The notes under the pieces were generated by a model, which did not search any database, had not been told where the DNA came from, and saw only the letters and a program-made list of their open reading frames with translations. Shown here in pieces: positions 1 through 37,772 of a stretch of DNA of 64,000 bases (positions are counted from its first letter, which is position 1; each line of letters begins with the position of its first letter). Source of the DNA: Pseudomonadota bacterium. GTDB taxonomy: Bacteria > Pseudomonadota > Gammaproteobacteria > Nevskiales > Nevskiaceae. The DNA is taken from positions 16,759-80,758 of the forward strand of contig JBPOHT010000037.1 in NCBI GenBank assembly GCA_052035235.1. The letters are read 5' to 3'. A program made the position numbers and the translations under genes.

Positions 1-964
1 GGATCGGCGCCACCGGCTTCTCGAAGCCGTGGGCATTGTCGACGCGGATGCGGCCGGTGGGCTTCTTGCTCTTCTTGTTGTCGCGCTTGCCGCCCTTGCC
101 TTCGGCCAGGTGCAGCTCGGTGCGGTGATGACGGTCGTCGCGGCGACCACCACGGTCGGCACCCGGCGCGGGCGCGGTACCCGGTGCGGGGGTGGCGGCG
201 GTGGTGGCGGCTGCCGGGCGGCGCGGCGCGGCCACGGGGGCCGGGGCCGGCGGCGGCGCCAGGGCGGCCAGGCGCGCGGCCTCGGCGGCACGGCGCACGT
301 TCTCCGCAGCGCGGTTGCGCGAGGACTCGGCCTCGTACTTGGCGCGGTACAGCGGGTCTTCCTTCATGCGACGCTCGTGGGTCTCACGAGCCTCGCGCGC
401 GCTGGCCTCGGCCTCGGCACGCTTGCGTTCTTCTTCCGCGACGGCCTGCTGGCGCTCCAGGTCTTCCTGGGCGCGCTGGGCGGCCAACTCGGCGGCCCGC
501 TCGGCGGCGGCAGCCTTGTCGGCGGCCAGGCGCTGCGCGGCTTCCTCGGCGGCACGGATGGCTTCTTCATCCAGCGGCTGTTCCGGCTCGACAGCAGCGG
601 GCGCAGCAGCGGCGACGGCTTCCGCGCCGCCCTCCATCAGGTCATCCTTGACGTAGGTGCGCTTCTTGCGAACCTCGATGCTGACCGTCTTGGTCGGCGC
701 GCCACGGCCGCCACCGAGCTTGAGCTCGGTGGTTTCCTTGCGCTTGAGCGTGATGCTGCTGCTGCCGCGAGTGCCCAGCGTGCCGCCACCACCGCCCGGC
801 GCCTTCTGGCGCAGGTAGGCCAGCAGCGCCACCTTGTTCTCGGGAGTGACGGAAGACTGTGCGTCGGACACCGACACACCAGCCTCGCTGAACTGCACCA
901 GCAGCTCGGCGACGGGCCGCTTCAGCTCGTTGGCAAAATCTTGAACCGTTACGTTTATCGACAT
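1..964 (-). CDS. infB: Translation initiation factor IF-2, N-terminal part (runs off the left edge)
   Basis: Translated by hand from ATG at 964: MSINVTVQDFANELKRPVAELLVQF...KTVSIEVRKKRTYV...HGFEKPVAPI. Follows nusA and rimP as in the conserved operon. Confidence 0.95.
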   Translation of the reverse strand, partial: MSINVTVQDFANELKRPVAELLVQFSEAGVSVSDAQSSVTPENKVALLAYLRQKAPGGGGGTLGTRGSSSITLKRKETTELKLGGGRGAPTKTVSIEVRKKRTYVKDDLMEGGAEAVAAAAPAAVEPEQPLDEEAIRAAEEAAQRLAADKAAAAERAAELAAQRAQEDLERQQAVAEEERKRAEAEASAREARETHERRMKEDPLYRAKYEAESSRNRAAENVRRAAEAARLAALAPPPAPAPVAAPRRPAAATTAATPAPGTAPAPGADRGGRRDDRHHRTELHLAEGKGGKRDNKKSKKPTGRIRVDNAHGFEKPVAPI

Positions 965-992
965 AGTGTTCCTTCGCCTTCCGCAGGCAGCC

Positions 993-2483
993 TCAGGCGT
1001 AAGCCTTGGTACGCGCCGCCATGATCAGCGCGGAGGCCCGCTCGTCGCCCAGGTCGGGCAACATTTCCACCAATTCATCTGTCGCGAGGTCCGCAAGGCT
1101 CTCGCAGTTGGCAACGCCGGCCTCGGCCAGCGCGTAGGCGGTGTCCTCGTCGATACCCTTCAGCGACAGCAGGTCTTCCGAGGGGGTGGCGCCGGCAGCG
1201 CGTTCGGCCTTGGCGATCGCCTTGGTCAGCAGCACGTCGCGGGCGCGGTTACGCAGCTCCTCGACGATGGCCTCGTCGAACTCGTCGATCTGCAGCAGCT
1301 CTTCGGTCGGCACGTAGGCGATCTCCTCGAGCGAGGTGAAGCCCTCCTGCACCAGCACGCCAGCCACTTCGGCATCGACGTCGAGGCTGTCCATGAAGAC
1401 CTGCAGCACGCCCAGGTTTTCCTGTTCCTTCTTGGCCTCGGCCTCGGCCGCGGTCATGACGTTGAGCGACCAGCCGGTCAGTTCGGAGGCCAGGCGCACG
1501 TTCTGGCCGCCGCGGCCGATGGCCTGGGCCAGCTTCTCTTCCGATACGCCGATGGTCATGGCGTGGGACTCTTCGTCAACGACGATGGTCTCGACTTCGG
1601 CCGGGGCCATGGCGTTGATGACGAACTGGGCGATGTTGTCGTCCCAGGGCACGATATCGACACGCTCGCCGGCGAGTTCGTTGGACACGCTCTGCACGCG
1701 CGAACCGCGCATGCCGACGCAAGCGCCGACCGGGTCGATGCGCTTGTCCTTGGCCTGCACCGCAATCTTGGCGCGCAGGCCCGGATCGCGTGCGGCGCCC
1801 TTGAGCTCGATCAGGCCCTGGGCGATTTCCGGCACTTCGAGATTGAACAGCTCCATCAGGTACTGCGGCGAGGTGCGCGACAGGAACAGCTGCGGACCAC
1901 GAACCTGCGGGCTGACTTCATAGAGGTAGCCGCGCATGCGGTCACCCGGGCGCACCGGCTCACGCGGAATCAGCTGGTCGCGCAGCACGATGGCCTCGGC
2001 GTTGCCGCCCAGGTCCAGGATGACGTTGCCGCGCTCGATGCGCTTGACCAGACCGGTGATCAGCTCACCGACGCGAGCCTTGTAGGCCGCCACGATCTGG
2101 GAACGCTCGGCCTCGCGCACCTTCTGCACGATGACCTGCTTGGCCTTCTGCGCGCCGATGCGGCCGAAGTCCACGGACTCGACCTTGCGCTCGATGACGT
2201 CGCCGGGCTGGGCGTCTTCCTTTTCCTTCTGCGCGTAGGTCAGCTTGATCTGGCGCTCGGGGTACTCGAAGTCCTCGCTGTCGTCCTCCAGGACGGCCCA
2301 GCGACGGTAGGTGTCGTATTCGCCGGTGGTGCGGTCGATGAAGACGCGCAGTTCCGACTCGTCACCGTACTTTTCCTTGCCGGCGGAAGCGAGCGCGGCC
2401 TCCAGGGCCAGGAAAATCATTTCCTTCTCGACGCCCTTCTCGTTGGAGACGACGTCTACCATCAAGAGAATGTTCTTGTTCAC
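993..2483 (-). CDS. nusA: Transcription termination/antitermination factor NusA
   Basis: MNKNILLMVDVVSNEKGV, FGRIGAQKAKQVIVQKVREAER, GACVGMRGSRVQ, AIGRGGQNVRLASELTGW, plus C-terminal acidic repeats. Confidence 0.98.
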   Translation of the reverse strand: MNKNILLMVDVVSNEKGVEKEMIFLALEAALASAGKEKYGDESELRVFIDRTTGEYDTYRRWAVLEDDSEDFEYPERQIKLTYAQKEKEDAQPGDVIERKVESVDFGRIGAQKAKQVIVQKVREAERSQIVAAYKARVGELITGLVKRIERGNVILDLGGNAEAIVLRDQLIPREPVRPGDRMRGYLYEVSPQVRGPQLFLSRTSPQYLMELFNLEVPEIAQGLIELKGAARDPGLRAKIAVQAKDKRIDPVGACVGMRGSRVQSVSNELAGERVDIVPWDDNIAQFVINAMAPAEVETIVVDEESHAMTIGVSEEKLAQAIGRGGQNVRLASELTGWSLNVMTAAEAEAKKEQENLGVLQVFMDSLDVDAEVAGVLVQEGFTSLEEIAYVPTEELLQIDEFDEAIVEELRNRARDVLLTKAIAKAERAAGATPSEDLLSLKGIDEDTAYALAEAGVANCESLADLATDELVEMLPDLGDERASALIMAARTKAYA

Positions 2484-2489
2484 GCGCTA

Positions 2490-2954
2490 CTACTCCCGGT
2501 CATAGTCAGGAACGAGACGCGCCCGTTCCATCTCGGAATATTCGATTTCGATGTCGCCCTGCTCGGTTTCGAGGGTCACGCTCTTGTCGTTGGACGCACG
2601 GATCCAGCCGATGAAGCGGCGGCGTCCGTTCTTGGGGGCCAACAACTGGATACGTGCCTGCTCGTTCATGAAGCGCTCGAAATGCGCCGGCTTGGCCAGC
2701 GGGCGATCGAGGCCGGGCGAGGAGACTTCCAGCGAATACTGGGTACTGATGGGGTCTTCGACATCCATCTGGGCAGCCACTTCGCGGCTGACCTTTTCGC
2801 AATCTTCCACGCCGATGCCGTTGGCGCTGTCGATGAACAGGCGCAGCAGGGCATTGTGGCTGTTCGGGCTGAACTCGAGCAGCACGAGCTCGTAACCCAT
2901 CGATTCCACGACGGGCTCCAGCATCTGTACCAACCTCTCGCGCAACACAGTCAT
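2490..2954 (-). CDS. rimP: Ribosome maturation factor RimP
   Basis: LRLFIDS, DCEKVSR, YSLEVSSPGLDRPL motifs. Start moved to MTVLRERL (ATG 2954). Confidence 0.95.
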   Translation of the reverse strand: MTVLRERLVQMLEPVVESMGYELVLLEFSPNSHNALLRLFIDSANGIGVEDCEKVSREVAAQMDVEDPISTQYSLEVSSPGLDRPLAKPAHFERFMNEQARIQLLAPKNGRRRFIGWIRASNDKSVTLETEQGDIEIEYSEMERARLVPDYDRE

Positions 2955-2975
2955 TTTCAGAAAATCTTCAGAAAT

Positions 2976-2998
2976 GAAAATGGCCCTCAAGGGGCCAT
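2976..2998 (-). terminator. Host intrinsic terminator/attenuator between the tRNA-fMet position and rimP
   Basis: 7-bp stem ATGGCCC/GGGCCAT (2980-2998) followed by a T run on the minus strand. Confidence 0.6.
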
Positions 2999-3024
2999 GT
3001 CGGAGCCTACAAATAATCTTAAAT

Positions 3025-3042
3025 TGGTAGCGGGGGCAGGAT
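3025..3042 (+). repeat. Left prophage attachment site (displaced 3' end of tRNA-fMet)
   Basis: TGGTAGCGGGGGCAGGAT, identical to 37696-37713. Confidence 0.92.
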
Positions 3043-3173
3043 ACGGAACCAATCTGACTCGCGTAATCCGTGTGCCGCTGCTGCCAAGACAGCGCAAATT
3101 ATAGGGGGACACAGCCAAAAAGCATAGAGCAATTTGACCGAAAACAGAAACTCCAACTTATCCACAGGCCCTC

Positions 3174-3443
3174 TCAGGCCTTTTGCAGCATCCCCGGCGG
3201 CCCATCGCGCCACAGCCTGGCCGTCGTCGCCTGGTGGAACAGCAGCGCAGCCTCGAAGAACAGCACCGCCCCCGTGATCGTCTGCCCCCAGGCTAACGGC
3301 GCCAGCAGCATCCCCAGGGATGCCGTGGTCAGCAGCGACAGGGACAGCCGCACCCCCCTGGCCGTCTCTGAATTCGCCTTCATCACACGCCAGTAGCCCA
3401 GGCCCACCAGGCCCGCGCAGATCGCCACATGCAGGTAGATCAT
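3174..3443 (-). CDS. Small phage membrane protein (holin/antiholin candidate)
   Basis: MIYLHVAICAGLVGLGYWRV..., about 3 hydrophobic segments; ATGA overlap with the upstream gene. Confidence 0.6.
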   Translation of the reverse strand: MIYLHVAICAGLVGLGYWRVMKANSETARGVRLSLSLLTTASLGMLLAPLAWGQTITGAVLFFEAALLFHQATTARLWRDGPPGMLQKA

Positions 3444-3793
3444 GAAGCCCGCTCCTTGGTGATTCGGGACAGGAGCCAATCCTTTAGCCCCAGCCAGTTG
3501 TCCCCGACCAATGCAATGATGAACGCCGCCGGCATCAGCAACTGCTGCACCGGGTGCCCGATCAGGTCGGACAGGTACGCCGCCGCAAAGCTCGCCGTCA
3601 TCGCGCTCATCGTCACCGCCCGGAAGAAGTAGAGAAACCCCTTCCGCCCGTGCAGGTCCATGCTGGACAGCGCGCAGAGCGCCCCCGCCACCGCCCCCAG
3701 CAGGATGATGGCGTACTCGCCCAGGATCGGGGACAGGGACGTGATCGTCCCGGCTGCCGCGATGGTCGTAGGATCAGCCTTTCCGGGCAGCAT
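3440..3793 (-). CDS. Phage membrane protein, putative holin
   Basis: MLPGKADPTT...; 3-4 hydrophobic segments and a basic C-terminus; lies in the lysis region. Confidence 0.6.
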   Translation of the reverse strand: MLPGKADPTTIAAAGTITSLSPILGEYAIILLGAVAGALCALSSMDLHGRKGFLYFFRAVTMSAMTASFAAAYLSDLIGHPVQQLLMPAAFIIALVGDNWLGLKDWLLSRITKERAS

Positions 3794-5200: not shown

Positions 5201-8092
5201 TCACGGCGTGTACGTCGTCACCACCGAGCCCGGCTTCGCCACGTTGCCGCCCTGCGGCAGGTAGACGTAGATGCGCCCCTCCGGCGTCGTCTCGTAGTCG
5301 TAGACGCTGCCGCTGCTCGTGCACGAGTCCAGCCACATCATCGTCGCGTCCGCCGTCGGGCCCGTGCCCGCGGCAAAATTCACGCTGTTGATGCCGCTGC
5401 GCGAGTCGCGCGAGATAACGCCCAGGTTCCAGCTGTAGGCGTTGTTCACATCGTGGATGTTGCGGTTCTGGTTCAGGTACACCAGGCAACCCACGCGGAT
5501 GATGATGCCGCCGTCGTGCATCGTAGAGCCGTTGTTCGTGCCGCCCGGCTCATGCCCACCCGAGCGCCAGATGCAGTTGAACTCGAAGGTGATCGGCGGC
5601 AGGCTGCCCGGAACGCCGTGGTAGTTCGCGTCATCCAGCACATTGCCCGCGCCCAAGCAGTCACGGACATACAGCGTGATATGCCCATCCGTGCCAAGGC
5701 CGTTCTTGCCACTGCTGCCGCCGCTGTACTTGAACGAGCAATCCCACAGATAGCCCGTGGCCATGTAGGTGCCCGTCGTCGCCGCCACCTGGAACGGCCG
5801 GCTGCCGCCCTCGAAGTCGATCCCCTTCACCCAGCAGGTACCATCCACCCGCTGGTAGCAGCCGTTGCGCGCATCCAGGAACACCAGCAGGCTCGCGTCC
5901 GGCGCCCGGTTGTTGAACGTCCGCACGTACACCGTCAGCCCGCTCACGTAATAGCTATTGGCCGTCGCCTCCACGTCATCCACGCTGGCCACCGGCACCA
6001 GGCGCGTGTAGTCCCCGTCCGCATCCAGGTTCGCCGCGTCCACCACGCTGCCTACGCTGGTGATCGTCGCCTCGTAGGTGTTCGTCTTCCCCGAGCTCAG
6101 CGCCCAGCTCAGCCCCGTGTTGTTGCGCCGGCTCACCACCCGCCCCGCAAACCCCGGCCATGGCTCCACCACCAGCCCCGCGCTGGTCGGGTTCGCATCC
6201 CGCCAGGAATCGTTGCCGGCGTACACCCCCGGCTTCACATAGATCTGCACATTCCCGCTGCGGCCATGCGCCGCCTGGTACAGGCTCTTCAGCGGGTCGC
6301 TGGCCGTACCCGCATTCGCATCGCTGCCCGTGGCCACGTCCACATACAGCGTCGTACTGGCTGCAGCCGCCTGGAACGGCCGCCGCGCCTCGAAATCGCA
6401 GTCATCGAAGAAAGACGCCGTGCTGAAGCGGTAGATGCCGAAATCCGGCTGGTAAGGGAACCCTACCGGCGGCTTCACCCGCATCTTCTGAAGCAGCCGG
6501 TCCGACGCATACAGCGTCGCGTTCTTCGCCGGCGTCAGCTCCGGCACCGCCGCCGTGTCAATCGCCGCCTGCGTATCGGCGTTGATCGTCTCCTGATACA
6601 GCTGCACCACATGCATGTTGCCGTCGCCGCGCCAGGCCAACCACACCGGCCCCGCGGGAATCCCCGACACCACGAAACTCTGCACCGTCCCATTCGGCAG
6701 CGTGATCCGCACCACGCCGGACCCATCCGCCTTGCGGGAAACCTTGATCTTCACCGTATTGCCCGCCACATAGGCGCGCCCCGCAATCGCCGGAGCAATC
6801 GCGTAATCCAGCGTCTCGTCGTCCTTCACCACCAACACCTGCCCATTGGACCGGTACAGGTACTGCCGGCGTGTCGCCCCCGCCGGGCCAAACGCCACAC
6901 CCACCATGATCGAGCTGGTGTTGATCGTGATCCCGTTGGCCGTCACCTCCCAGCTCTGCGTCAGCGCGTGGGTATTGAAGTCCGTCGACACCACCACATG
7001 TCGCCCCGACTGCGTTGAGACGATATCGAGCCCGCCCGCGTTGTACGTCGCCGTAAAGCCCGACAGCGCCGTCCCGTTCGTGCGCGCCTTGGTGAACCGC
7101 GCAATCTCCGCGAAGAACTCCGGCCGCTGGCCCGCATAGTCCTTGTCCGTGATGCGCGTGTTCACCACGTTCGTGGCGGTCGGCGTCGTCTTCACCAGCG
7201 TCGCCACCGGGCCCGAGTCCACCCGGTACACGTCATAGGCGTTGTCGGCCGACGCGCTGTAGAGGTTGAAGCTCGAACCTACCGGGTTCGCCACCCCGAT
7301 CACCGCCGTCGCGGACGCCCCCGTCAGGCCGGACGACGCCGCAAAGGACAGCGTCGGCGCAGACGTGTAGCTGAACCCCGGAAAGGTGATGAAGATCGCC
7401 GTCACCGCCCCGCCGGCCACCGTGAAGGTGCCTGCCGCATTGCTGCCGCCACCGCCGGTGAAGGCCAGCGCAAAGCTGCCATTCGTACCGCCGGAGCCGC
7501 CCACCAGGCCGGTCGTGCCCACCACCCCATTGCTCAGCCCCGCCGCCGTGCTCGGGTACACCCGCCCGCTGTTCGCCGCCGCGTCCGCATAGCCGTCCGC
7601 CAGCACCGCGCTGTCCGCCGCAGAGGCCGCGCTGGCCAGCGCGCTCGCCGCGTTGGTGGCCGAGCTGGTCGCCGCTGCCGTCGCCGTCGCCTCGCTCGCC
7701 GCCGCCTGCGCCGCGTCGATGCTCGCCTCAGCCGCACTCGTCGTCGCGCTCTGCGCAGACGCCACCGCAACCGCGGCGCTCTCCACCGCGCTCTCCGCCG
7801 CCGCCTCGATCTCCGCTAGCTTCGGCGGCTCGATGTTGTCCGCCGTCCCCACCAGCGCCCCGTTGGCATCCTCGATCCGCACGCCATACGTGCCGTTCCA
7901 GTAGATCGCCGCCTCCCCGCGCGCATCCAGGATCACCGGGTTCGGGTTCGGCACCGTCTGCGTGGCATCGGTGTAGGTCGCCTTGAAGTCGTTCGTCCCG
8001 GCCGCATAGGTGTACACCTTGCCGCCCACCAGGGGATTCCCCTTGAGGTCGAAGTACTGCTGTTTGATGTTCGGGAGCACGTAGGCCGTCAT
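5201..8092 (-). CDS. Tailspike / receptor-binding protein (963 aa), probable depolymerase
   Basis: N-terminal head-binding-type segment (QYFDLKGNPLVGGKVYTYAAGT...NPVILDARG), Ala/Ser linker, then the beta-helix-type motif LYVDVATGSDANAGTASDPLKSL. Confidence 0.75.
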   Translation of the reverse strand: MTAYVLPNIKQQYFDLKGNPLVGGKVYTYAAGTNDFKATYTDATQTVPNPNPVILDARGEAAIYWNGTYGVRIEDANGALVGTADNIEPPKLAEIEAAAESAVESAAVAVASAQSATTSAAEASIDAAQAAASEATATAAATSSATNAASALASAASAADSAVLADGYADAAANSGRVYPSTAAGLSNGVVGTTGLVGGSGGTNGSFALAFTGGGGSNAAGTFTVAGGAVTAIFITFPGFSYTSAPTLSFAASSGLTGASATAVIGVANPVGSSFNLYSASADNAYDVYRVDSGPVATLVKTTPTATNVVNTRITDKDYAGQRPEFFAEIARFTKARTNGTALSGFTATYNAGGLDIVSTQSGRHVVVSTDFNTHALTQSWEVTANGITINTSSIMVGVAFGPAGATRRQYLYRSNGQVLVVKDDETLDYAIAPAIAGRAYVAGNTVKIKVSRKADGSGVVRITLPNGTVQSFVVSGIPAGPVWLAWRGDGNMHVVQLYQETINADTQAAIDTAAVPELTPAKNATLYASDRLLQKMRVKPPVGFPYQPDFGIYRFSTASFFDDCDFEARRPFQAAAASTTLYVDVATGSDANAGTASDPLKSLYQAAHGRSGNVQIYVKPGVYAGNDSWRDANPTSAGLVVEPWPGFAGRVVSRRNNTGLSWALSSGKTNTYEATITSVGSVVDAANLDADGDYTRLVPVASVDDVEATANSYYVSGLTVYVRTFNNRAPDASLLVFLDARNGCYQRVDGTCWVKGIDFEGGSRPFQVAATTGTYMATGYLWDCSFKYSGGSSGKNGLGTDGHITLYVRDCLGAGNVLDDANYHGVPGSLPPITFEFNCIWRSGGHEPGGTNNGSTMHDGGIIIRVGCLVYLNQNRNIHDVNNAYSWNLGVISRDSRSGINSVNFAAGTGPTADATMMWLDSCTSSGSVYDYETTPEGRIYVYLPQGGNVAKPGSVVTTYTP

Positions 8093-8208
8093 GGACCACT
8101 CCGGGTGACGAAAAAAGTGACGGGCACAGCCAAGCCGCCCGGATTCGGGCAGCCAGAGCTGCAAGGGGAGATCAGCGCGCCGAGCGCGCTATGCCGAAGA
8201 CGCCGCGG

Positions 8209-26816: not shown

Positions 26817-27191
26817 ATGGATGAACTGAGCACGAGAGTGCGCTCTGCAAGGACGCAGGCAAAAGTAACTCAGGAGATGCTGGCAGTGTCCTGCGGCATC
26901 AAGAGAGAAGCTGTTACAGCCTGGGAAAGCGGAGCCACCAAGACAATTAGCAGCGACGTGCTGTTTGACGCCGCTCGCACGCTCGCGGTCGATCCAGAAT
27001 GGCTGGCAACCGGCCGTGGCACACGGGAACCGCTCGGCACGCGCGAGTCAGCCCCTTCATACTTCGCTGTTCGACCTGCAGCCGCCACGGTCATTGCCCT
27101 CGTGCGCCAGCTTGCCGGGGACTCCAACATCCCTGACGCCGTTTTCGACTCAGTCGCGACTCTGCTGCGCCTCATTCCCCGGCGAGCTTAG
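26817..27191 (+). CDS. CI-like repressor (XRE HTH), with no recognisable S24 peptidase domain
   Basis: LSTRVRSART...TQEMLAVSCGIKREAVTAWESG...LAVDPEWLATGRG; only 124 aa. Confidence 0.8.
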   Translation: MDELSTRVRSARTQAKVTQEMLAVSCGIKREAVTAWESGATKTISSDVLFDAARTLAVDPEWLATGRGTREPLGTRESAPSYFAVRPAAATVIALVRQLAGDSNIPDAVFDSVATLLRLIPRRA

Positions 27192-27199
27192 CCCTGGGC

Positions 27200-27433
27200 T
27201 CACTGGCCAGAAAGGCCAGGCACTAGGATTTGCCACAACTCCAGGCTGAACGCACCTGCCACCTGATCCACGATCTCCAGATTCGGAGGATGCCGCGCGT
27301 GCAGCAGGTTGTTGACGGTCTTCTGTGACGTGCCAGCGCGACGTGCCACCTCGCCCTCAGTCCATTCGTTTTTGATCATCAAATGCCGAAGATTTGAGGC
27401 AAGTGTTTCACGGGGAGAGGAGCGCTTTGCCAT
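27200..27433 (-). CDS. XRE-family HTH protein
   Basis: LASNLRHLM...WTEGEVARRAGTSQKTVNNL. Confidence 0.75.
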   Translation of the reverse strand: MAKRSSPRETLASNLRHLMIKNEWTEGEVARRAGTSQKTVNNLLHARHPPNLEIVDQVAGAFSLELWQILVPGLSGQ

Positions 27434-27442
27434 CGGCGTAAA

Positions 27443-27757
27443 TTAGTCAACCTCTCTAACGCATTGATCCACTCGATGCAAAGTGATGTCGAGCGCCTTC
27501 GTCCGGCTGTTTAGCTCCTCCAGCATTCCACGGAGCCGATCAACTTCAGCGGATACATATCGGGCATGCGCCAGGGTCTCACCACCCTCAGCTGCACCAC
27601 GCCAACCACCCCCGAACGCATAAAAATTCAACACCACCGGCAACACAGCAAACCACCACGGCGAGCTGGCCGCCAGGCATGCAATTAGCCAAATCATGGA
27701 GGTAATACTGACTCCGTAGACACGGCGCATGGTTAAGGGCTTTGTGCCGCTCATCAT
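27443..27757 (-). CDS. Membrane protein with C-terminal coiled-coil (moron-like)
   Basis: AGGAG RBS; hydrophobic IWLIACLAASSPWWFAVLPVVLNF; AT-richer than its neighbours. Confidence 0.5.
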   Translation of the reverse strand: MMSGTKPLTMRRVYGVSITSMIWLIACLAASSPWWFAVLPVVLNFYAFGGGWRGAAEGGETLAHARYVSAEVDRLRGMLEELNSRTKALDITLHRVDQCVREVD

Positions 27758-27817: not shown

Positions 27818-27870
27818 GTAACTTTGCTTACATTGTAATGTTGCCATGCTTACGTAAGCATGTTTACTAT
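27818..27870 (+). promoter_or_regulatory. Early (pL-like) promoter with three operators, upstream of the DGR-containing operon
   Basis: Operators at 27818-27831, 27840-27853 and 27854-27867; TTGCCA-N18-TACTAT (27841-27870). Confidence 0.65.
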
Positions 27871-27894: not shown

Positions 27895-28335
27895 ATGACC
27901 ACCATCCAGAAGCTCGACGCCGCCGGCAACCTCCTGCCCGCCGACACCACCGCCCACGCCATCCTCGTCATCAACGGCCTGCGCATCGACGTGCGCCCCC
28001 GCGAGTTCTCCGAGAACCACGCCGCCGCCATGGCCGAGTGCCAGGCCGTGGACCTGCTGGGCCTGACCTGGCGCGCCGCCACCCGCCGCGAAGTCCTCGC
28101 CCTCGTGGACGACGAGAACCCCAACGGCCCCTTCGACAAGACCCTCTTCCCCAACCTGCCGGAATACGGCTGGCTCTGGACCTCCACTCCCTACGCCCGC
28201 GAGGAAGACCCTGCCGCTCCGGTTTGTGCCTGGGGCGTCCCCCTCTACGACGGCGACGCCCACCTCGCCAACCGCCGCTACGAAGGGCTCGCCCTCCCCG
28301 TGTCGCCGTTGGCCGCGCCCGCCAGTCAGTCCTAG
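27895..28335 (+). CDS. DGR target protein 1 (DUF1566/Lcl C-type-lectin-like, 146 aa)
   Basis: WRAAT..E...D...P..D...FP.....WTST...AWGV; 3' end carries VR1. Confidence 0.85.
   Translation: MTTIQKLDAAGNLLPADTTAHAILVINGLRIDVRPREFSENHAAAMAECQAVDLLGLTWRAATRREVLALVDDENPNGPFDKTLFPNLPEYGWLWTSTPYAREEDPAAPVCAWGVPLYDGDAHLANRRYEGLALPVSPLAAPASQS
28211..28326 (+). repeat. DGR variable repeat VR1
   Basis: 116 bp, 13 mismatches to TR, all at TR adenines. Confidence 0.95.
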
Positions 28336-28380
28336 GGCCTTGGGGCTTTTCCTCCTCAATCCATCACCGGAGTTCCATTC

Positions 28381-28818
28381 GTGACCACCATCCAGAAGCT
28401 CGACGCCGCCGGCAACCAACTGCCCGCCGACACCACCGCCCACGCCATCCTCGTCATCAACGGCCTGCGCATCGACGTGCGCCCCCGCACCAAGAAGGCC
28501 TGGGCCAAGGCCATCGGCAGCTGCGATGAAGGCGATCTGCTCGCGCTCCCCTGGCGAGCCGCCACCCTGCCGGAAGTCCTGTCCGTAGCCGACTTCAACA
28601 ACCCCAACGGCCCCTTCGACAAGACCCTCTTCCCCAACCTGCCGGAATACGGCTGGCTCTGGACCTCCACCCCCTACGCCCGCGAGGAAGACCCTGCCGC
28701 TCCGGTTTGTGCCTGGGGCGTCGACCTCTGCGACGGCTACGCCGACATCGGCGGCCGCTACGACGAAGGGCTCGCCCTCCCCGTGTCGCCGTTGGCCGCG
28801 CCCGCCAGTCAGTCCTAG
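28381..28818 (+). CDS. DGR target protein 2 (145 aa)
   Basis: Paralog of target 1; GTG start; 3' end carries VR2. Confidence 0.85.
   Translation: MTTIQKLDAAGNQLPADTTAHAILVINGLRIDVRPRTKKAWAKAIGSCDEGDLLALPWRAATLPEVLSVADFNNPNGPFDKTLFPNLPEYGWLWTSTPYAREEDPAAPVCAWGVDLCDGYADIGGRYDEGLALPVSPLAAPASQS
28694..28809 (+). repeat. DGR variable repeat VR2
   Basis: 116 bp, 13 mismatches to TR, all at TR adenines. Confidence 0.95.
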
Positions 28819-28896
28819 GGCTTTGGGGCTTTCCCTTCCATCCATGCGGAACGCAGCGATGCCTATCGACATCACCCATCACCAGGAAGCCCGCGC

Positions 28897-29115
28897 ATGA
28901 GCGGCGTCACCCGCATCGGCTCTGTGGTCGTGGAAACCACAGACCGTGCCCTGGCGCTGCGCGTGGCCCAGGCCGCTGCCAGCGTGCTGGAACACCGCGG
29001 CTTCATGCGCACCGAGGGTGTTGCCGTGCGCTGGGCCAGCGCCTGGCACTACGACGAGCACGGCTTCGGCAGCTCGGAGAGCGGCGCGGCTGCCGGCAAC
29101 CAGGAACAGGGGTAG
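28897..29115 (+). CDS. Hypothetical phage protein
   Basis: 72 aa in the early operon; AGGA upstream. Confidence 0.45.
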   Translation: MSGVTRIGSVVVETTDRALALRVAQAAASVLEHRGFMRTEGVAVRWASAWHYDEHGFGSSESGAAAGNQEQG

Positions 29116-29118
29116 ACC

Positions 29119-29307
29119 ATGACCACCTCACTGCCGCCCGGCTCCTTCACCGCGCCCCACCCGGAGGACTCCTGCCACTCGCAGCCCGACGCACCGGCCG
29201 AGCGCATCGGCGAGTGCGACCTGTGCGGCGAGGTGGACCATCACCTGGTGCAGGGCTCCTGCGAAACCTGCCGCCGCCACTACCGCATGGAGGCTGGCCA
29301 ATGCTGA
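29119..29307 (+). CDS. Small protein with CxxC..CxxC zinc-finger motif
   Basis: ECDLCGEVDHHLVQGSCETC. Confidence 0.5.
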   Translation: MTTSLPPGSFTAPHPEDSCHSQPDAPAERIGECDLCGEVDHHLVQGSCETCRRHYRMEAGQC

Positions 29308-29465
29308 CCATCCAGCGCGTGGAAGCGGCGCCGCTGGCCGGCATCCCCATCAGTCAGGCCGAGCTGCGTGGCGTGACGGTGGACGACTTCCTGCGCCGCG
29401 CCCTGGCGCGCGGCTTCGCCGTGGCCCAGCACAAATCCACGTTCTTCCTCGTCCGCATCCACTGA
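29301..29465 (+). CDS. Hypothetical phage protein (54 aa)
   Basis: GGAGG RBS at 29289; MLTIQRVEAAP... Confidence 0.5.
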   Translation: MLTIQRVEAAPLAGIPISQAELRGVTVDDFLRRALARGFAVAQHKSTFFLVRIH

Positions 29466-29476
29466 CGGAGATCCCC

Positions 29477-29725
29477 ATGCGCAAGCCTATCCCGCCCATT
29501 GTCCTGCAGGAAAACTTCAAACCGCAGTCGCTGGAAGTGCAGAAGCAAACCCTCGCCCGCCTGGTGCACGAGACGGACCTGGACCAGAACCGCGGCTGGC
29601 TGCATCCCAACGTCGCCGCGCTCCGCCGCTACGACCTCAAGTCGATCTTCCACACCCTCTCGAATCTGCCGGCGCCGGTTGCAGCCGGCGAGCCCACCCA
29701 GCCCTCCAGCCAGGAAGCCGCATGA
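29477..29725 (+). CDS. Hypothetical phage protein
   Basis: GGAG RBS; ATGA overlap with the next gene. Confidence 0.55.
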   Translation: MRKPIPPIVLQENFKPQSLEVQKQTLARLVHETDLDQNRGWLHPNVAALRRYDLKSIFHTLSNLPAPVAAGEPTQPSSQEAA

Positions 29726-30234
29726 ACCTGTTCCAGCGCTTTGCCCAGTGGCTCATCCAGCGCGCCAGCGCGCGCGCGCCGGACTTCATCATCGGCGAGC
29801 GTGCCGAGCCGTACATCCGCCGCTGGTGGGTGATCCCGCGCAACCCGTTCTTCAACATCTACCTGCACGAGATCCTGCGCGGCGACCCTGACCGCGCCCT
29901 GCACTGCCACCCCTGGGCCAACGTCTCCATCCTGCTCCAGGGCGGCTATATCGAGCGCCTACCGCTGCGCCAGGCGCAACAGCCGAGCTGGGACTACGTG
30001 CCCGGCTACACCTATGACGTGGTGCGCAAGGCCGGGCAGGCCTGGGGGCGCCTCGGCCACTTCCGCCATCGGCTGTTCGTGCCGGAGGGCGGCCACTGCT
30101 GGAGCCTGTTCCTCACCGGGCCGGTGTATCGCCGCTGGGGCTTCCACTGCAAGGCCGACTGGGTCTACTGGCGCGATTACGTCAGCGACAAGGACAAGGG
30201 CCTGGTTGGGCGCGGCTGCGGGGAGCATGCATGA
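29722..30234 (+). CDS. Cupin-like phage protein
   Basis: YLHEILRGD.DRALHCHPW..S.LLQGGY.E ... FRHRL ... WSLFLTGP...WGF. Confidence 0.6.
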   Translation: MNLFQRFAQWLIQRASARAPDFIIGERAEPYIRRWWVIPRNPFFNIYLHEILRGDPDRALHCHPWANVSILLQGGYIERLPLRQAQQPSWDYVPGYTYDVVRKAGQAWGRLGHFRHRLFVPEGGHCWSLFLTGPVYRRWGFHCKADWVYWRDYVSDKDKGLVGRGCGEHA

Positions 30235-30428
30235 GCGCCACCCAGAACCACCCCGGCACGCCGCGCTGCGCGGACTGCACGCTGCCCATGCACGGCACCG
30301 ACCAGCACGAAGGCCCGGACCAGAAGCTCTATCACGGCGCCTGCTTTGGCCGCCTCTTCACCACGGCGCGCCACTACCAGGAAGGCCAGGGCAATCTGAG
30401 CTTTGCTCACGAAGAGCAGCGGGAGTAA
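30231..30428 (+). CDS. Small Cys/His-containing phage protein
   Basis: CADC...YHGAC; ATGA-coupled. Confidence 0.45.
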   Translation: MSATQNHPGTPRCADCTLPMHGTDQHEGPDQKLYHGACFGRLFTTARHYQEGQGNLSFAHEEQRE

Positions 30429-30507
30429 TGGGATGTTGCTTCCTGAAATTCCCACACGTGGTCACTCGACAGCGGCCGAGCCGACGCAATTCCAAGGGGA
30501 TTCGTAA

Positions 30508-30960
30508 ATGATCGCCGAAGAAATGGCAGAGCACATCATCAAGGGCACGGCGCCGGACCGGAAGACGCTGTGCGGGTGGTATGAGGCCCTGCAACAGGCA
30601 CCGTCCGCAGGCGCAGCAATTGCTGTAGTACGCCACAAGCCGTGCAAGAACCACGGCGGGCGCCCGGATGTTCAGTCGAACATCGACTGGCTGGGCGAAC
30701 CTCCCGCAGAAGGAACCCACCTATTTGCCGGGACGAGGACCGCAGATGGCGTCTCCGATAGCTTCCGCGCCGACGCACTCTACTCCGCCCTCACCCAGGT
30801 CATGGAGTTGCTGCGTCAGGATAGTGATGACCCTGAAGACCCCATGTCGAATTTCCGGTTCGACTCTCGCTGGGAGGAGATAGCGGAGGTCGCGGATGCG
30901 GCGCTGGAGTTACACGCCGAATCGAATCTGCTGCGATCAGGGCAACCCAAGGGCCGCTAG
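30508..30960 (+). CDS. Hypothetical phage protein
   Basis: 150-aa ORF in operon orientation. Confidence 0.5.
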   Translation: MIAEEMAEHIIKGTAPDRKTLCGWYEALQQAPSAGAAIAVVRHKPCKNHGGRPDVQSNIDWLGEPPAEGTHLFAGTRTADGVSDSFRADALYSALTQVMELLRQDSDDPEDPMSNFRFDSRWEEIAEVADAALELHAESNLLRSGQPKGR

Positions 30961-31036
30961 CCGCCCTGATCGCCGCGAACTACCACCACGCATCCCGCCG
31001 CGCCAAAGCGGCCTGACCCACCCACCCGAGAAACCC

Positions 31037-31618
31037 ATGACCAATCTCAGCATCATCCTCGCCGCCGGCGACAGCATCCGCATTTCGCGGCATGGCGCCC
31101 AGACCACCATGCTTCTGGAGGATTGCCAGGCGCTGCAGTCCGCGCCCACGGTCGGCACTGCCGGAGCCTGCACGCAGCCGCGCCACACCAAGCTGGATGC
31201 CAGCGGCACCGAGCTGCCCCTCACCAGCCGCGATCACTCCTTCCTGATCGACCGCAAGGCCGGCCTGATCATCGACGTGCGCGCCCTGCATCGCGGCAAC
31301 CACGAGAGCTGCACCCGCTTCGCCGCCGAGTCCAAGGCCCTGGACCGCACCTGGCGCCTGGGCACCGTGGAGGAGCTGTTCCTCTACGTCGCCGACCGCA
31401 CCAAGCAGGACCCCGCCGTCGATCGGGACCTGTTCCCGCGCCTGGGCAACGACTTGCTCTGGACCTGCACGCCGGATGCAAAGCCGTCCGATCCTGCCGC
31501 TCCGGTTTATGCCTGGGGCGTCAACCTCAGCAACGGCCTCGCCGGCGTCAGCAACCGCAACCGCGAAGGGCTCGCCCTCCCCGTGTCGCCGTTGGCCGCG
31601 CCCGCCAGTCAGTCCTAG
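31037..31618 (+). CDS. DGR target protein 3 (193 aa, with an N-terminal extension)
   Basis: HTKLDASG, IDRKAGL, WRLGTVEEL, DRDLFP, LWTCT; 3' end carries VR3. Confidence 0.85.
   Translation: MTNLSIILAAGDSIRISRHGAQTTMLLEDCQALQSAPTVGTAGACTQPRHTKLDASGTELPLTSRDHSFLIDRKAGLIIDVRALHRGNHESCTRFAAESKALDRTWRLGTVEELFLYVADRTKQDPAVDRDLFPRLGNDLLWTCTPDAKPSDPAAPVYAWGVNLSNGLAGVSNRNREGLALPVSPLAAPASQS
31494..31609 (+). repeat. DGR variable repeat VR3
   Basis: 116 bp, 9 mismatches to TR, all at TR adenines. Confidence 0.95.
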
Positions 31619-31660
31619 GGCTTTGGGCTGCGACCTTTCAATCCACACCGGAGACTCTTC

Positions 31661-32098
31661 GTGACCAAGATCCTAAAGTACGACGCCAAGGGAAACCTGC
31701 TGCCGGCGGATTCCACCAAGCACGCCATCCTGCTGGTCAACGATCTGCGCATCGACGTGCGCAAGCGCAAGGCCGTGCCGCATGCCCAGGCCATGGCCCA
31801 GTGCGCCAAGGTGAATCTGCTGGGTGCCACCTGGCGCTCCGCCACGGTTCGCGAGGCCTGGGCGCTGGCGGACCTCACCAACCCGAACGGGCCGTTCGAC
31901 AAGAACCTGTTCCCGCACTTCCCGGAATACGGCTGGCTCTGGACGTCCGACCCCTATGCCCGCGAGGCCGATTCTGCCGCTCCGGTTTTTGCCTGGGGCG
32001 TCGGCCTCCCCAACGGCTTCGCCTACGTCGGCAGCCGCCACTACGAAGGGCTCGCCCTCCCCGTGTCGCCGTTGGCCGCGCCCGCCAGTCAGTCCTAG
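31661..32098 (+). CDS. DGR target protein 4 (145 aa)
   Basis: Paralog of targets 1 and 2; 3' end carries VR4; directly upstream of avd. Confidence 0.85.
   Translation: MTKILKYDAKGNLLPADSTKHAILLVNDLRIDVRKRKAVPHAQAMAQCAKVNLLGATWRSATVREAWALADLTNPNGPFDKNLFPHFPEYGWLWTSDPYAREADSAAPVFAWGVGLPNGFAYVGSRHYEGLALPVSPLAAPASQS
31974..32089 (+). repeat. DGR variable repeat VR4
   Basis: 116 bp, 14 mismatches to TR, all at TR adenines. Confidence 0.95.
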
Positions 32099-32114
32099 GG
32101 CATAGGGGCTTTTA

Positions 32115-32558
32115 ATGTCTTTTGACCTGCCGCCGATCATCAAGAAAGCCGAGCTTGTCCGGGCCATGGCCGAGGCCGCCGTAGCGACGTGGCCGCGCCA
32201 TCACCGGTATGCGCACGGCGGTGAGCTGCGGCGGCAGGCAAAGGAAGTGGTACGCCTGGCCCACAAGGCCTGGACGGACCGCGGCGAGCGGCCGCAGCAC
32301 CTGACCAGCCTCGCCGCGGCGGTCGATGACCTCAAGGCCGATCTGCGCCTAGGCCAGATGATCCGGGTGTTCCGGAGCTTCGGGCAGTTCGACGCGATCA
32401 TGGTCGAGGCCAAAGACCTCGGGAAACAATGCGGAGCCCTGAAAAGACGGCATCCGCTGCAGGAGCACTCCAAGGGCCAGAATGCGCAGGCCTCTCGCGC
32501 CGGCGCAGCGCGCCCAGATACTGAGTACCCCGGCCGCCTCGCAGGGGCCATGGGATGA
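32115..32558 (+). CDS. avd: DGR accessory variability determinant (Avd, four-helix bundle)
   Basis: Basic helical protein: WPRHHRYAHGGELRR, LKADLRLG, LGKQCGAL; sits between target and TR/RT. Confidence 0.8.
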   Translation: MSFDLPPIIKKAELVRAMAEAAVATWPRHHRYAHGGELRRQAKEVVRLAHKAWTDRGERPQHLTSLAAAVDDLKADLRLGQMIRVFRSFGQFDAIMVEAKDLGKQCGALKRRHPLQEHSKGQNAQASRAGAARPDTEYPGRLAGAMG

Positions 32559-33910
32559 CGAAGCCTGCCTACGCCAACACGGGATGGCCGGCCTGGTCCA
32601 AAGAGTCGGGGGACGCTGCCGCTCCGGTTTATGCCTGGGGCGTCAACCTCAACAACGGCAACGCCAACATCAACAACCGCAACAACGAAGGGCTCGCCCT
32701 CCCCGTGTCGCCGTTGGCCGCGCCCGCCAGTGAGTATCAGAGTGCGGGGCGCATCAGCCGACAGGATCTGTTCAAGGCCTTCTGGACTGCCCGCAAGGGC
32801 AAGGTGCCCAGCTGCAACCGCATGCGCTTCGAAGCCGACTGGCACGAGCGCATCACCTTCCTGGAGCAGCAGATCAACAGCCACATGTGGCTGCCGCTGC
32901 CCACGTCCGTCTTCGTGGCAGAAACCCCCAAGGCCCGGCAGATCCACGCGCCGGACTTCGAGGACCGCGTCGTCCACCACTGGATCGTGCCCAAGCTGGA
33001 ACAGCGCTACGAGCCCATCTTCATCGCGGACTCCTACGCCAACCGTCGCGGCAAAGGCTGCCACGCCGCCGTGCGCCAGCTCACTCGCTTCGTCCGCCAG
33101 GTCGCCAGCGGCCAGGGCCGCGGCTGGTATCTGCAGCTCGATATCGCCAACTGCTTCAACTCCATCAACCGCAAGCGCCTCTGGCGCATGGTCCGCCGCA
33201 TGATGCAGCGCTGGCGCATGCCGGAGATCGAGCAGCGCGTCGTGCACGCCCTGCTCCGCCGCTCCCCGCTGGAGCAGGGCATCCGCAGCCGTGCCTCACC
33301 GGCGCAGCTGGCCAAGGTCCCGTACCACAAGCGCCTGGAGGCCGCGGCGCCCGGCTGCGGACTTCCCATCGGCAGCCTGCCCAGCCAGTTCCTGGCCAAC
33401 GTCTACCTCAACGCCCTGGACCAGTTCGTCAAGCACGTCCTCAAGGCCAAGCGCTACCTGCGCTACGCCGACGACTTCGTCCTGGTCCACGAGAGCCGCG
33501 AGCAGCTCCAGACCTGGCACCGCCAGATCGAGGCCTTCCTGCACCGCGAGCTGGGCCTGCGCCTGAAGGACGACGTCCGCCTGCGGCCGCTGGAAGACGG
33601 CATCGACTTCCTGGGCTACATCGTGCGCCCCACCCACACCCTCGTGCGCCGCCGCGTCGTCACCCACGCCAAGACCAAGCTACAGGCCTGGGAGCGCGCC
33701 CACGTGCGCGCAGACGCCATCGTCGCCACGCCAGAGGCCCTGCGCGCCGGGCTCGCGGTCTGGCGCAGCTACCAGGGCCATTTCCAGCACGCCAATACGC
33801 ACAGGCTCCAGCAGGGCCTGCAGGAGCGCTTCCCCTGGCTGCCCGCGCTCCAACGCCGGCGGCGCACCGATCACAGGCATGAAGGCCGGACATTGAGGAT
33901 TGCCATATGA
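32555..33910 (+). CDS. DGR reverse transcriptase (TR in frame at the 5' end; start uncertain)
   Basis: ARKGK, RQIHAPDFEDRVVHH, FIADSYANRRGKG.H, LQLDIANCFNSI, GLPIGSLPSQFLANVYL, YLRYADDF, IDFLGY. Confidence 0.95.
   Translation: MTKPAYANTGWPAWSKESGDAAAPVYAWGVNLNNGNANINNRNNEGLALPVSPLAAPASEYQSAGRISRQDLFKAFWTARKGKVPSCNRMRFEADWHERITFLEQQINSHMWLPLPTSVFVAETPKARQIHAPDFEDRVVHHWIVPKLEQRYEPIFIADSYANRRGKGCHAAVRQLTRFVRQVASGQGRGWYLQLDIANCFNSINRKRLWRMVRRMMQRWRMPEIEQRVVHALLRRSPLEQGIRSRASPAQLAKVPYHKRLEAAAPGCGLPIGSLPSQFLANVYLNALDQFVKHVLKAKRYLRYADDFVLVHESREQLQTWHRQIEAFLHRELGLRLKDDVRLRPLEDGIDFLGYIVRPTHTLVRRRVVTHAKTKLQAWERAHVRADAIVATPEALRAGLAVWRSYQGHFQHANTHRLQQGLQERFPWLPALQRRRRTDHRHEGRTLRIAI
32616..32731 (+). ncRNA. 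DGR template repeat (TR)
   Basis: Nine AAC codons plus TAT and ATC; A-rich master copy of the four VRs; lies between avd and the RT core. Confidence 0.93.
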
Positions 33911-35992: not shown

Positions 35993-36142
35993 ATGAAACC
36001 CACGCCGCCTATCCATGCACTGCTGCAGCTACTGGCCCAGCAGGCCGTGCGCGAGCATCTAACAGCAGTTCGCCAACCGAATCAGCAGGATGCGCCCGCG
36101 CGCTCAAATCACCCTCTGCCGAACAAATCGGCCAACCGGTAG
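35993..36142 (+). CDS. 49-aa protein directly upstream of the integrase (directionality-factor candidate)
   Basis: GGAGG RBS at 35981; MKPTPPIHALLQLLAQQAVREHL. Confidence 0.5.
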   Translation: MKPTPPIHALLQLLAQQAVREHLTAVRQPNQQDAPARSNHPLPNKSANR

Positions 36143-36152
36143 CGTGTCCCAG

Positions 36153-37772
<1,620 letters not shown>

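Follow-up and report, generated by a model that had tools for sequence, protein, structure and literature searches.

A diversity-generating retroelement with one template repeat and four targets in a P22-like prophage of a Nevskiaceae bacterium

In Bordetella phage BPP-1 (gene order mtd-avd-TR-brt), a diversity-generating retroelement (DGR) serves a single target, the 381-aa tail-fibre protein Mtd, which has N-terminal docking domains and is encoded in the structural module. Among viral DGR targets, annotation as a tail protein predominates (Roux et al. 2021, PMC8144416), and small single-CLec 'target2' proteins of gut phages are assumed to bind receptors (Baykov et al. 2023, PMC10743442). The CLec2/DUF1566 class of targets is typified by cellular DGRs (PMC5758913), and DGR-diversified putative antigen sensors are also known (PMC10907252). 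Several targets are found in about 15% of DGRs (PMC5758913, PMC6602519). In phage-associated DGRs non-adjacent targets often lie within the same prophage, target number shifts quickly between close relatives, and the largest tandem set reported is eight, in a Stenotrophomonas sp. (Wu et al. 2018, PMC5758913). The eight targets of Stenotrophomonas sp. SKA14 (ACDV01000044.1) are small CLec2 proteins, of which the farthest is the longest (myDGR, PMC6602519). Here we describe a locus in a 64,000-nt stretch of Nevskiaceae DNA (assembly GCA_052035235.1, contig JBPOHT010000037.1, positions 16,759 to 80,758; hereafter the window), in which one template repeat (TR) matches the variable repeats (VRs) of four target genes, T1 to T4. 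We put at roughly 90% the probability that this is a genuine, intact DGR in a 34.7-kb P22-like prophage at a tRNA-Met gene, with a single module of avd, TR and reverse transcriptase (RT) for all four targets.

The TR occupied positions 32616-32731 of the window on the plus strand. It was 116 nt long, contained 23 adenines and lay in frame inside the RT open frame, towards its 5' end. Ungapped alignment to VR1 (28211-28326), VR2 (28694-28809), VR3 (31494-31609) and VR4 (31974-32089) gave 13, 13, 9 and 14 mismatches, respectively. Every one of the 49 mismatches fell at a TR adenine, whereas the 372 comparisons at non-adenine positions (4 x 93) showed no difference; given 23 adenines among 116 positions, the chance of finding every mismatch at an adenine is about (0.2)^49. 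The four VRs were all distinct: they differed pairwise at 11-17 positions, every one a TR-adenine site. The whole 4.95-Mb assembly held exactly five copies of the repeat, namely the TR and VR1-VR4.

The mutable codons of the TR, nine AAC together with TAT and ATC, allow 15^9 x 16 = 6.15e11 variants, and no possible substitution in them leads to a stop codon. Three further TR adenines were invariant in all four VRs, two of them in a GAA codon (32688-32689) and one in AGT (32729). The constancy of the encoded Glu across VR1-VR4 may reflect selection for Glu at this site, or chance. In relatives, the corresponding Glu varied to Val and Gly.

Sequence next to the repeats was far less uniform than the repeats themselves. 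Over the 100 nt upstream of the VRs, T1 and T2 differed at 5 positions, T4 differed from T1 or T2 at 19-23, and T3 differed from the other targets at 50-53. Because the flanks of the paralogs have diverged, common descent cannot explain the perfect identity at non-adenine sites, whereas repeated copying from the TR can. The alignments thus offer strong, though indirect, evidence that homing happened after the paralogs diverged, and they suggest that the DGR was probably active recently.

Immediately upstream of the TR, avd (32115-32558, plus strand) encodes a 147-aa product that matched phrog_3206, 'Avd protein of DGR' (E 2e-12), as well as bAvd (Pfam, E 8e-5) and NF033474 (NCBIfam, E 5e-7); its matches to PDB sequences were spurious gyrase matches only. 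The avd stop codon overlaps the ATG of the RT gene (ATGA). The RT open reading frame (ORF; 32555-33910, plus strand) encodes 451 aa from ATG 32555, with the RT core beginning at about residue 66. The protein matched RVT_1 (E 2e-21) and carried both YADD and GLPIGSLPSQ. Its best solved relative was the 328-aa chain 8ub7_A (E 5e-30), which the database labels only 'Reverse transcriptase' and which we take to be the BPP-1 RT. RTs of group II introns and retrons scored far weaker than 8ub7_A, and NCBIfam returned only sub-threshold matches to group II and DRT models. This was the one DGR-type RT in the whole assembly.

The start of the RT gene had some further features. From the TR to the conserved N-terminus of the RT there was no in-frame ATG; the only other possible starts, GTG 32705 and TTG 32714, both fall within the TR. 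The RT leader, MTKPxYAxxGW..SKESGD, and its open frame were conserved in two metagenome relatives (L065 and L066; 73-80% nucleotide identity). The TR of Pseudomonas relatives overlaps the start of the RT gene in another frame and contains an ATG.

These results bear out the first-pass annotation of this DNA, which had called a DGR of the BPP-1 kind. Its repeat coordinates, ungapped alignments and mismatch counts were reproduced exactly, and realignment confirmed its claim that the mismatches are confined to adenines and that every VR is different. Its estimate of about 6e11 variants agreed with our count, and the profile and structure matches above confirmed the adjoining Avd and RT that it had reported. 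The call is further backed by the C-terminal position of the VRs in C-type-lectin targets and by the prophage context, both described below.

At their 3' ends the TR and VRs share an invariant, GC-rich segment of 46 nt. Alignment of the downstream sequence showed CAGTCCTAGGGCnTnGGG after every VR, that of the divergent T3 included (28327-28344, 28810-28827, 31610-31627 and 32090-32107, plus strand). This element was absent after the TR, where GAGTATCAGAGTGC stands instead. Such an arrangement fits a pair of initiation of mutagenic homing elements (IMH and IMH*), and CAGTCCTAGGGCnTnGGG is a candidate for the distal part of the IMH or for a target-recognition element. A weak stem with G-T pairs was found at 32091-32110.

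By analogy with BPP-1, TR-containing RNA would be reverse-transcribed by an RT-Avd complex that misincorporates opposite adenines. The cDNA would then replace a VR, guided by the invariant 3' segment and the VR-specific element behind it. Up to 11 codons on a surface beta-hairpin would be randomised in this way, never giving a stop. The four targets would have arisen by duplication, with T1, T2 and T4 as the short type and T3 as the long type, and repeated homing would hold them in register with the TR.

The locus shares with BPP-1 its carriage by a phage, the order target-avd-TR-RT, A-specific mutagenesis, a VR at the C-terminus of a C-type-lectin fold, an AAC-rich TR and a GC-rich invariant 3' end. 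Unlike BPP-1, it places four single-domain targets of 145-193 aa in the early or lysogeny arm and has its TR within the RT open frame, and its VRs are not followed by a clear hairpin. The SKA14 cassette, compared here from its published description only, likewise combines one avd-TR-RT module with many small CLec2 targets, one of them longer, and with A-to-N changes only. It differs in having eight tandem targets, as against four in two pairs split by six genes, and no prophage or early-operon context has been described for it. LdtA of Legionella pneumophila, the type example of CLec2/DUF1566, has the same VR class and belongs to the same Lcl_C/DUF1566 family; LdtA is an exported surface lipoprotein encoded on a genomic island, whereas T1-T4 appear to lack export signals and lie in a prophage. 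The gut-phage proteins nd4_tgt2 and nd12_tgt2 (PMC10743442) are also small single-CLec proteins with the VR on a surface beta-hairpin, and their cassettes also pair one TR with more than one target, but they are DUF6273 proteins of 234-294 aa from myophages of gut Firmicutes. Pseudomonas phage Bise was examined as a possible close counterpart and set aside: this P2-like myovirus has a conventional DGR located behind its tail genes.

Close relatives of the targets were few. A search of 5.8 billion proteins for the target family found nine members, four of them from this window; the others came from short metagenome contigs (L065-L067) that carry a module of long and short targets, avd and RT at 73-80% nucleotide identity. 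The RT clade was widespread in Proteobacteria and IMG/VR and was carried by three genomes of the same family (G001, G006 and G021). In 52 related cassettes with detectable VRs we tallied, for each TR, the A-specific VRs lying no more than about 10 kb from the RT. One VR was present in 20 cassettes, two in 22, three in eight, four in the present cassette only and at least five in one (L074). The latter is a viral IMG/VR contig of 9.8 kb with at least five tandem A-specific VRs at positions 1-3712 for one TR, the first VR being cut by the contig end.

Relatives with small Lcl_C targets (L007/L068, L065-L067, G001, G006, G021 and the IMG/VR sequences L070, L071 and L074) resembled the present cassette in their RTs (51-55% identical; 37% in L074), in the number of VRs served by one TR (two to at least five) and in the presence of short and long target subtypes. 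They differed in carrying two or three, or at least five, targets and in the genes that intervene. In a Rheinheimera soli prophage (L007, RT 51% identical), a 137-aa target heads a plus-strand run and is followed by RdgC, two more small targets, avd, RT and integrase; the integrase is of the tyrosine type, as against the serine type here. The opposite strand of that prophage encodes a DHH phosphoesterase 55% identical to that of the present one. In G021 a single VR is adjacent and another two lie 5-7 kb away.

Several targets per cassette are typical of this RT clade, and four lie at the high end of a continuum rather than making a new kind of element. The first-pass annotation had regarded four targets in two tandem pairs 2.2 kb apart as an unusual architecture. 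The four targets and their two pairs stood, with a gap of 2.1-2.2 kb that varies with the start chosen for T3 (30896 or 31037). The word 'unusual' was too strong, because most cassettes of the clade (32 of 52) have at least two VRs, split layouts recur (L007, G021 and L087) and multi-target DGRs have been published, with at least five VRs in L074 and eight targets in SKA14. The annotation had also proposed looking for the same layout elsewhere: no other cassette with four VRs was found among the 52, but split cassettes and one with at least five VRs were.

An exact 18-bp direct repeat delimits the P22-like prophage, of about 34.7 kb, in which the element lies. The left att core, TGGTAGCGGGGGCAGGAT (3025-3042), stands next to host rimP-nusA-like genes, and the right att core (37696-37713) forms the 3' end of tRNA-Met (37696-37772, minus strand). 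GC content was high (66.7%), and phage matches were to phages of Xylella, Stenotrophomonas and Xanthomonas; both give no more than a hint of Xanthomonadales. On its minus strand the prophage encodes a cro-like protein, replication proteins (a DHH phosphoesterase among them), terminase, P22-type portal, scaffold and P22-type coat, proteins for head closure and ejection, a tailspike of 987 aa (5201-8164), an endolysin and a spanin. Coat proteins of the closest cultured phages were at most 39% identical. The prophage looks complete, and the four DGR targets, avd and RT are all intact.

A small helix-turn-helix (HTH) repressor gene (26818-27191, plus strand) is followed by two minus-strand genes and then by an unbroken plus-strand run: T1, T2, six small ORFs (28897-30960) that separate the two target pairs, T3, T4, avd, RT, four ORFs and a large serine recombinase (36090-37739; Resolvase, Recombinase and Zn_ribbon_recom), the integrase, which is last in the run. 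Directly 5' of T1 lies a promoter-like sequence, TTGCCA-18-TACTAT (27841-27870, plus strand), the sole such site before the run. It is overlapped by operator-like GTAA-N6-TTAC sites at 27818, 27840 and 27854 (whole region 27818-27870), of which the one at 27840 has two mismatches and was found by reading the sequence. Two more copies of the motif (26755 and 26777) lie between the cro-like gene and the repressor gene. Allowing one mismatch or none, the motif occurred six times in the 64 kb, and four of these six occurrences fell within the two short clusters. Because they all lie on one strand behind the operator-overlapped promoter-like site, the targets, avd, RT and integrase probably form one early-left operon under repressor control. 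The targets are 20 kb from the tailspike and on the opposite strand to every structural gene.

The integrase ORF (stop 37739) crosses the right att core into tRNA-Met antisense, and excision would therefore alter the integrase C-terminus. Between the repressor and the T1 promoter-like site, the minus strand (27200-27757) encodes another small HTH protein (77 aa) and a protein of 104 aa that has a single hydrophobic stretch and is coiled in its C-terminal half. No family match was obtained for either; both genes are candidates for expression in the lysogen.

All four targets are intact plus-strand ORFs with a common C-terminal end (...EGLALPVSPLAAPASQS, then the stop codon). T1 (27895-28335, 146 aa; PF07603 E 7e-9), T2 (28381-28818, 145 aa) and T4 (31661-32098, 145 aa) are of the short type, and T3 (31037-31618, 193 aa) is of a divergent long type. 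Each of the four consists essentially of one Lcl_C/DUF1566 C-type-lectin domain (Pfam PF07603) with the VR at its C-terminus. The VRs overlap the Lcl_C domain, which places the targets in the CLec2/DUF1566 class. The family profile was matched by 4617 representatives. The T3 frame is open from 30896, and its true start, there or at 31037, is uncertain. Long-type targets of two relatives (L066 and L067) are 246-247 aa; the N-terminal region of T3 (30896-31160) is shorter than theirs and could be aligned only in part.

An AlphaFold2 model of T2 had a pLDDT of 93.3. Fold searches with it returned C-type-lectin-like domains, among them the Legionella Lcl C-terminal domain 8q4e (root-mean-square deviation 3.1 A), and small DUF1566 proteins of uncultured phages; searching the sequences of solved structures with the target profile yielded no match. 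In the model the variable residues, 110-128 of 145, occupy two neighbouring strands (110-115 and 121-125) of a beta-hairpin.

A crude hydrophobicity and motif check detected no signal peptide, hydrophobic leader, lipobox or twin-arginine motif in T1-T4. Because they appear to lack a signal peptide, head an operator-overlapped run and are encoded far from the tailspike, T1-T4 may act inside the cell; where the genes lie and the apparent lack of export signals favour an intracellular role over receptor binding. We tentatively suggest that they are intracellular binders expressed early by a temperate podovirus, with a part in anti-defence, host take-over or exclusion and not in receptor binding; even so, we rate this reading well short of even odds. 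PADLOC found no defence-family match for the targets or neighbouring genes, and the RT matched generic RT models alone.

If T1-T4 do act within the infected cell, four paralogs would let one phage hold several specificities simultaneously, and DGR hypermutation would serve intracellular phage-host conflict as well as attachment. Their placement first in an apparent early operon recurs in the distantly related Rheinheimera prophage. To a known class the locus adds a clean, bounded example, an intact prophage with one TR, four intact targets and no non-adenine differences, and it offers a tractable case for studying the role of phage DGRs whose targets are something other than tail fibres.

A second possibility is that T1-T4 are virion-associated receptor-binding accessories on the tailspike or capsid, analogous to Mtd or 'target2' proteins, and that the DGR serves host-range switching. 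The prevalence of tail proteins among viral DGR targets (PMC8144416), the receptor binding proposed for small single-CLec 'target2' proteins (PMC10743442) and the exposure of the variable residues on a beta-hairpin of the T2 model all speak for such a role. It is set against by gene order: the targets head a run that ends in the integrase and stand apart from the structural genes in both distance and strand. At 145 aa the proteins are a single domain; unlike Mtd-like targets, they lack an N-terminal tail-docking domain and are encoded outside the tail module. A tblastn search of 50,697 cultured-phage records found no homologue, nor did a search of PHROGs or one of IMG/VR using the target profile. 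We consider a receptor-binding role unlikely, though a serious contender to the intracellular reading.

Less probable again is expression of the targets in the lysogen to serve the host, as hypervariable sensors or as exclusion factors against other phages. Such proteins would resemble the cellular CLec2 targets of Legionella and the conflict-system sensors of multicellular bacteria; the cellular character of the CLec2/DUF1566 class (PMC5758913) and the described putative antigen sensors (PMC10907252) are in keeping with this. It is also the case that accessory genes of lysogeny regions are commonly expressed in lysogens. The only promoter-like site upstream of the targets, however, overlaps operator-like sites of a kind also present in the cro/repressor region, which suggests that the targets are repressed in the lysogen. 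T1-T4 also lacked any signalling or effector domain in domain searches and PADLOC, and they lacked a lipoprotein or Tat signal such as that of LdtA. We therefore regard a role in the lysogen as rather improbable. That the cassette is a relic, its VRs diversified formerly by a DGR that no longer mutates, would accord with the lack of a clear hairpin downstream of the VRs but is very improbable beside an intact RT, Avd, TR and four targets, complete non-adenine identity between paralogs with diverged flanks, and a complete-looking prophage with intact att repeats.

Some points weigh against our account of an intact, probably recently active DGR whose targets head a putative repressor-controlled operon. 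The Avd scores fell under the curated cut-offs of Pfam and NCBIfam. The IMH/IMH* assignment comes solely from inspection of an alignment, and no convincing hairpin or cruciform was found 3' of the VRs, where the 91 nt around each VR end folded no more stably than shuffled sequences (z from +0.8 to +2.4). A hairpin or cruciform after the VR is a feature of the BPP-1 type and is not universal among DGRs. Activity is judged from sequence; the single early operon and its repressor control are deduced from consensus scans and motif clustering; and the export-signal check of T1-T4 was, as noted, a crude one.

Among the ORFs between the two target pairs, one of 170 aa (29722-30234, plus strand) matched phrog_4786, 'cysteine dioxygenase' (E 3e-52), a protein common to phages of Xylella, Stenotrophomonas and Clavibacter and to mycobacteriophages.

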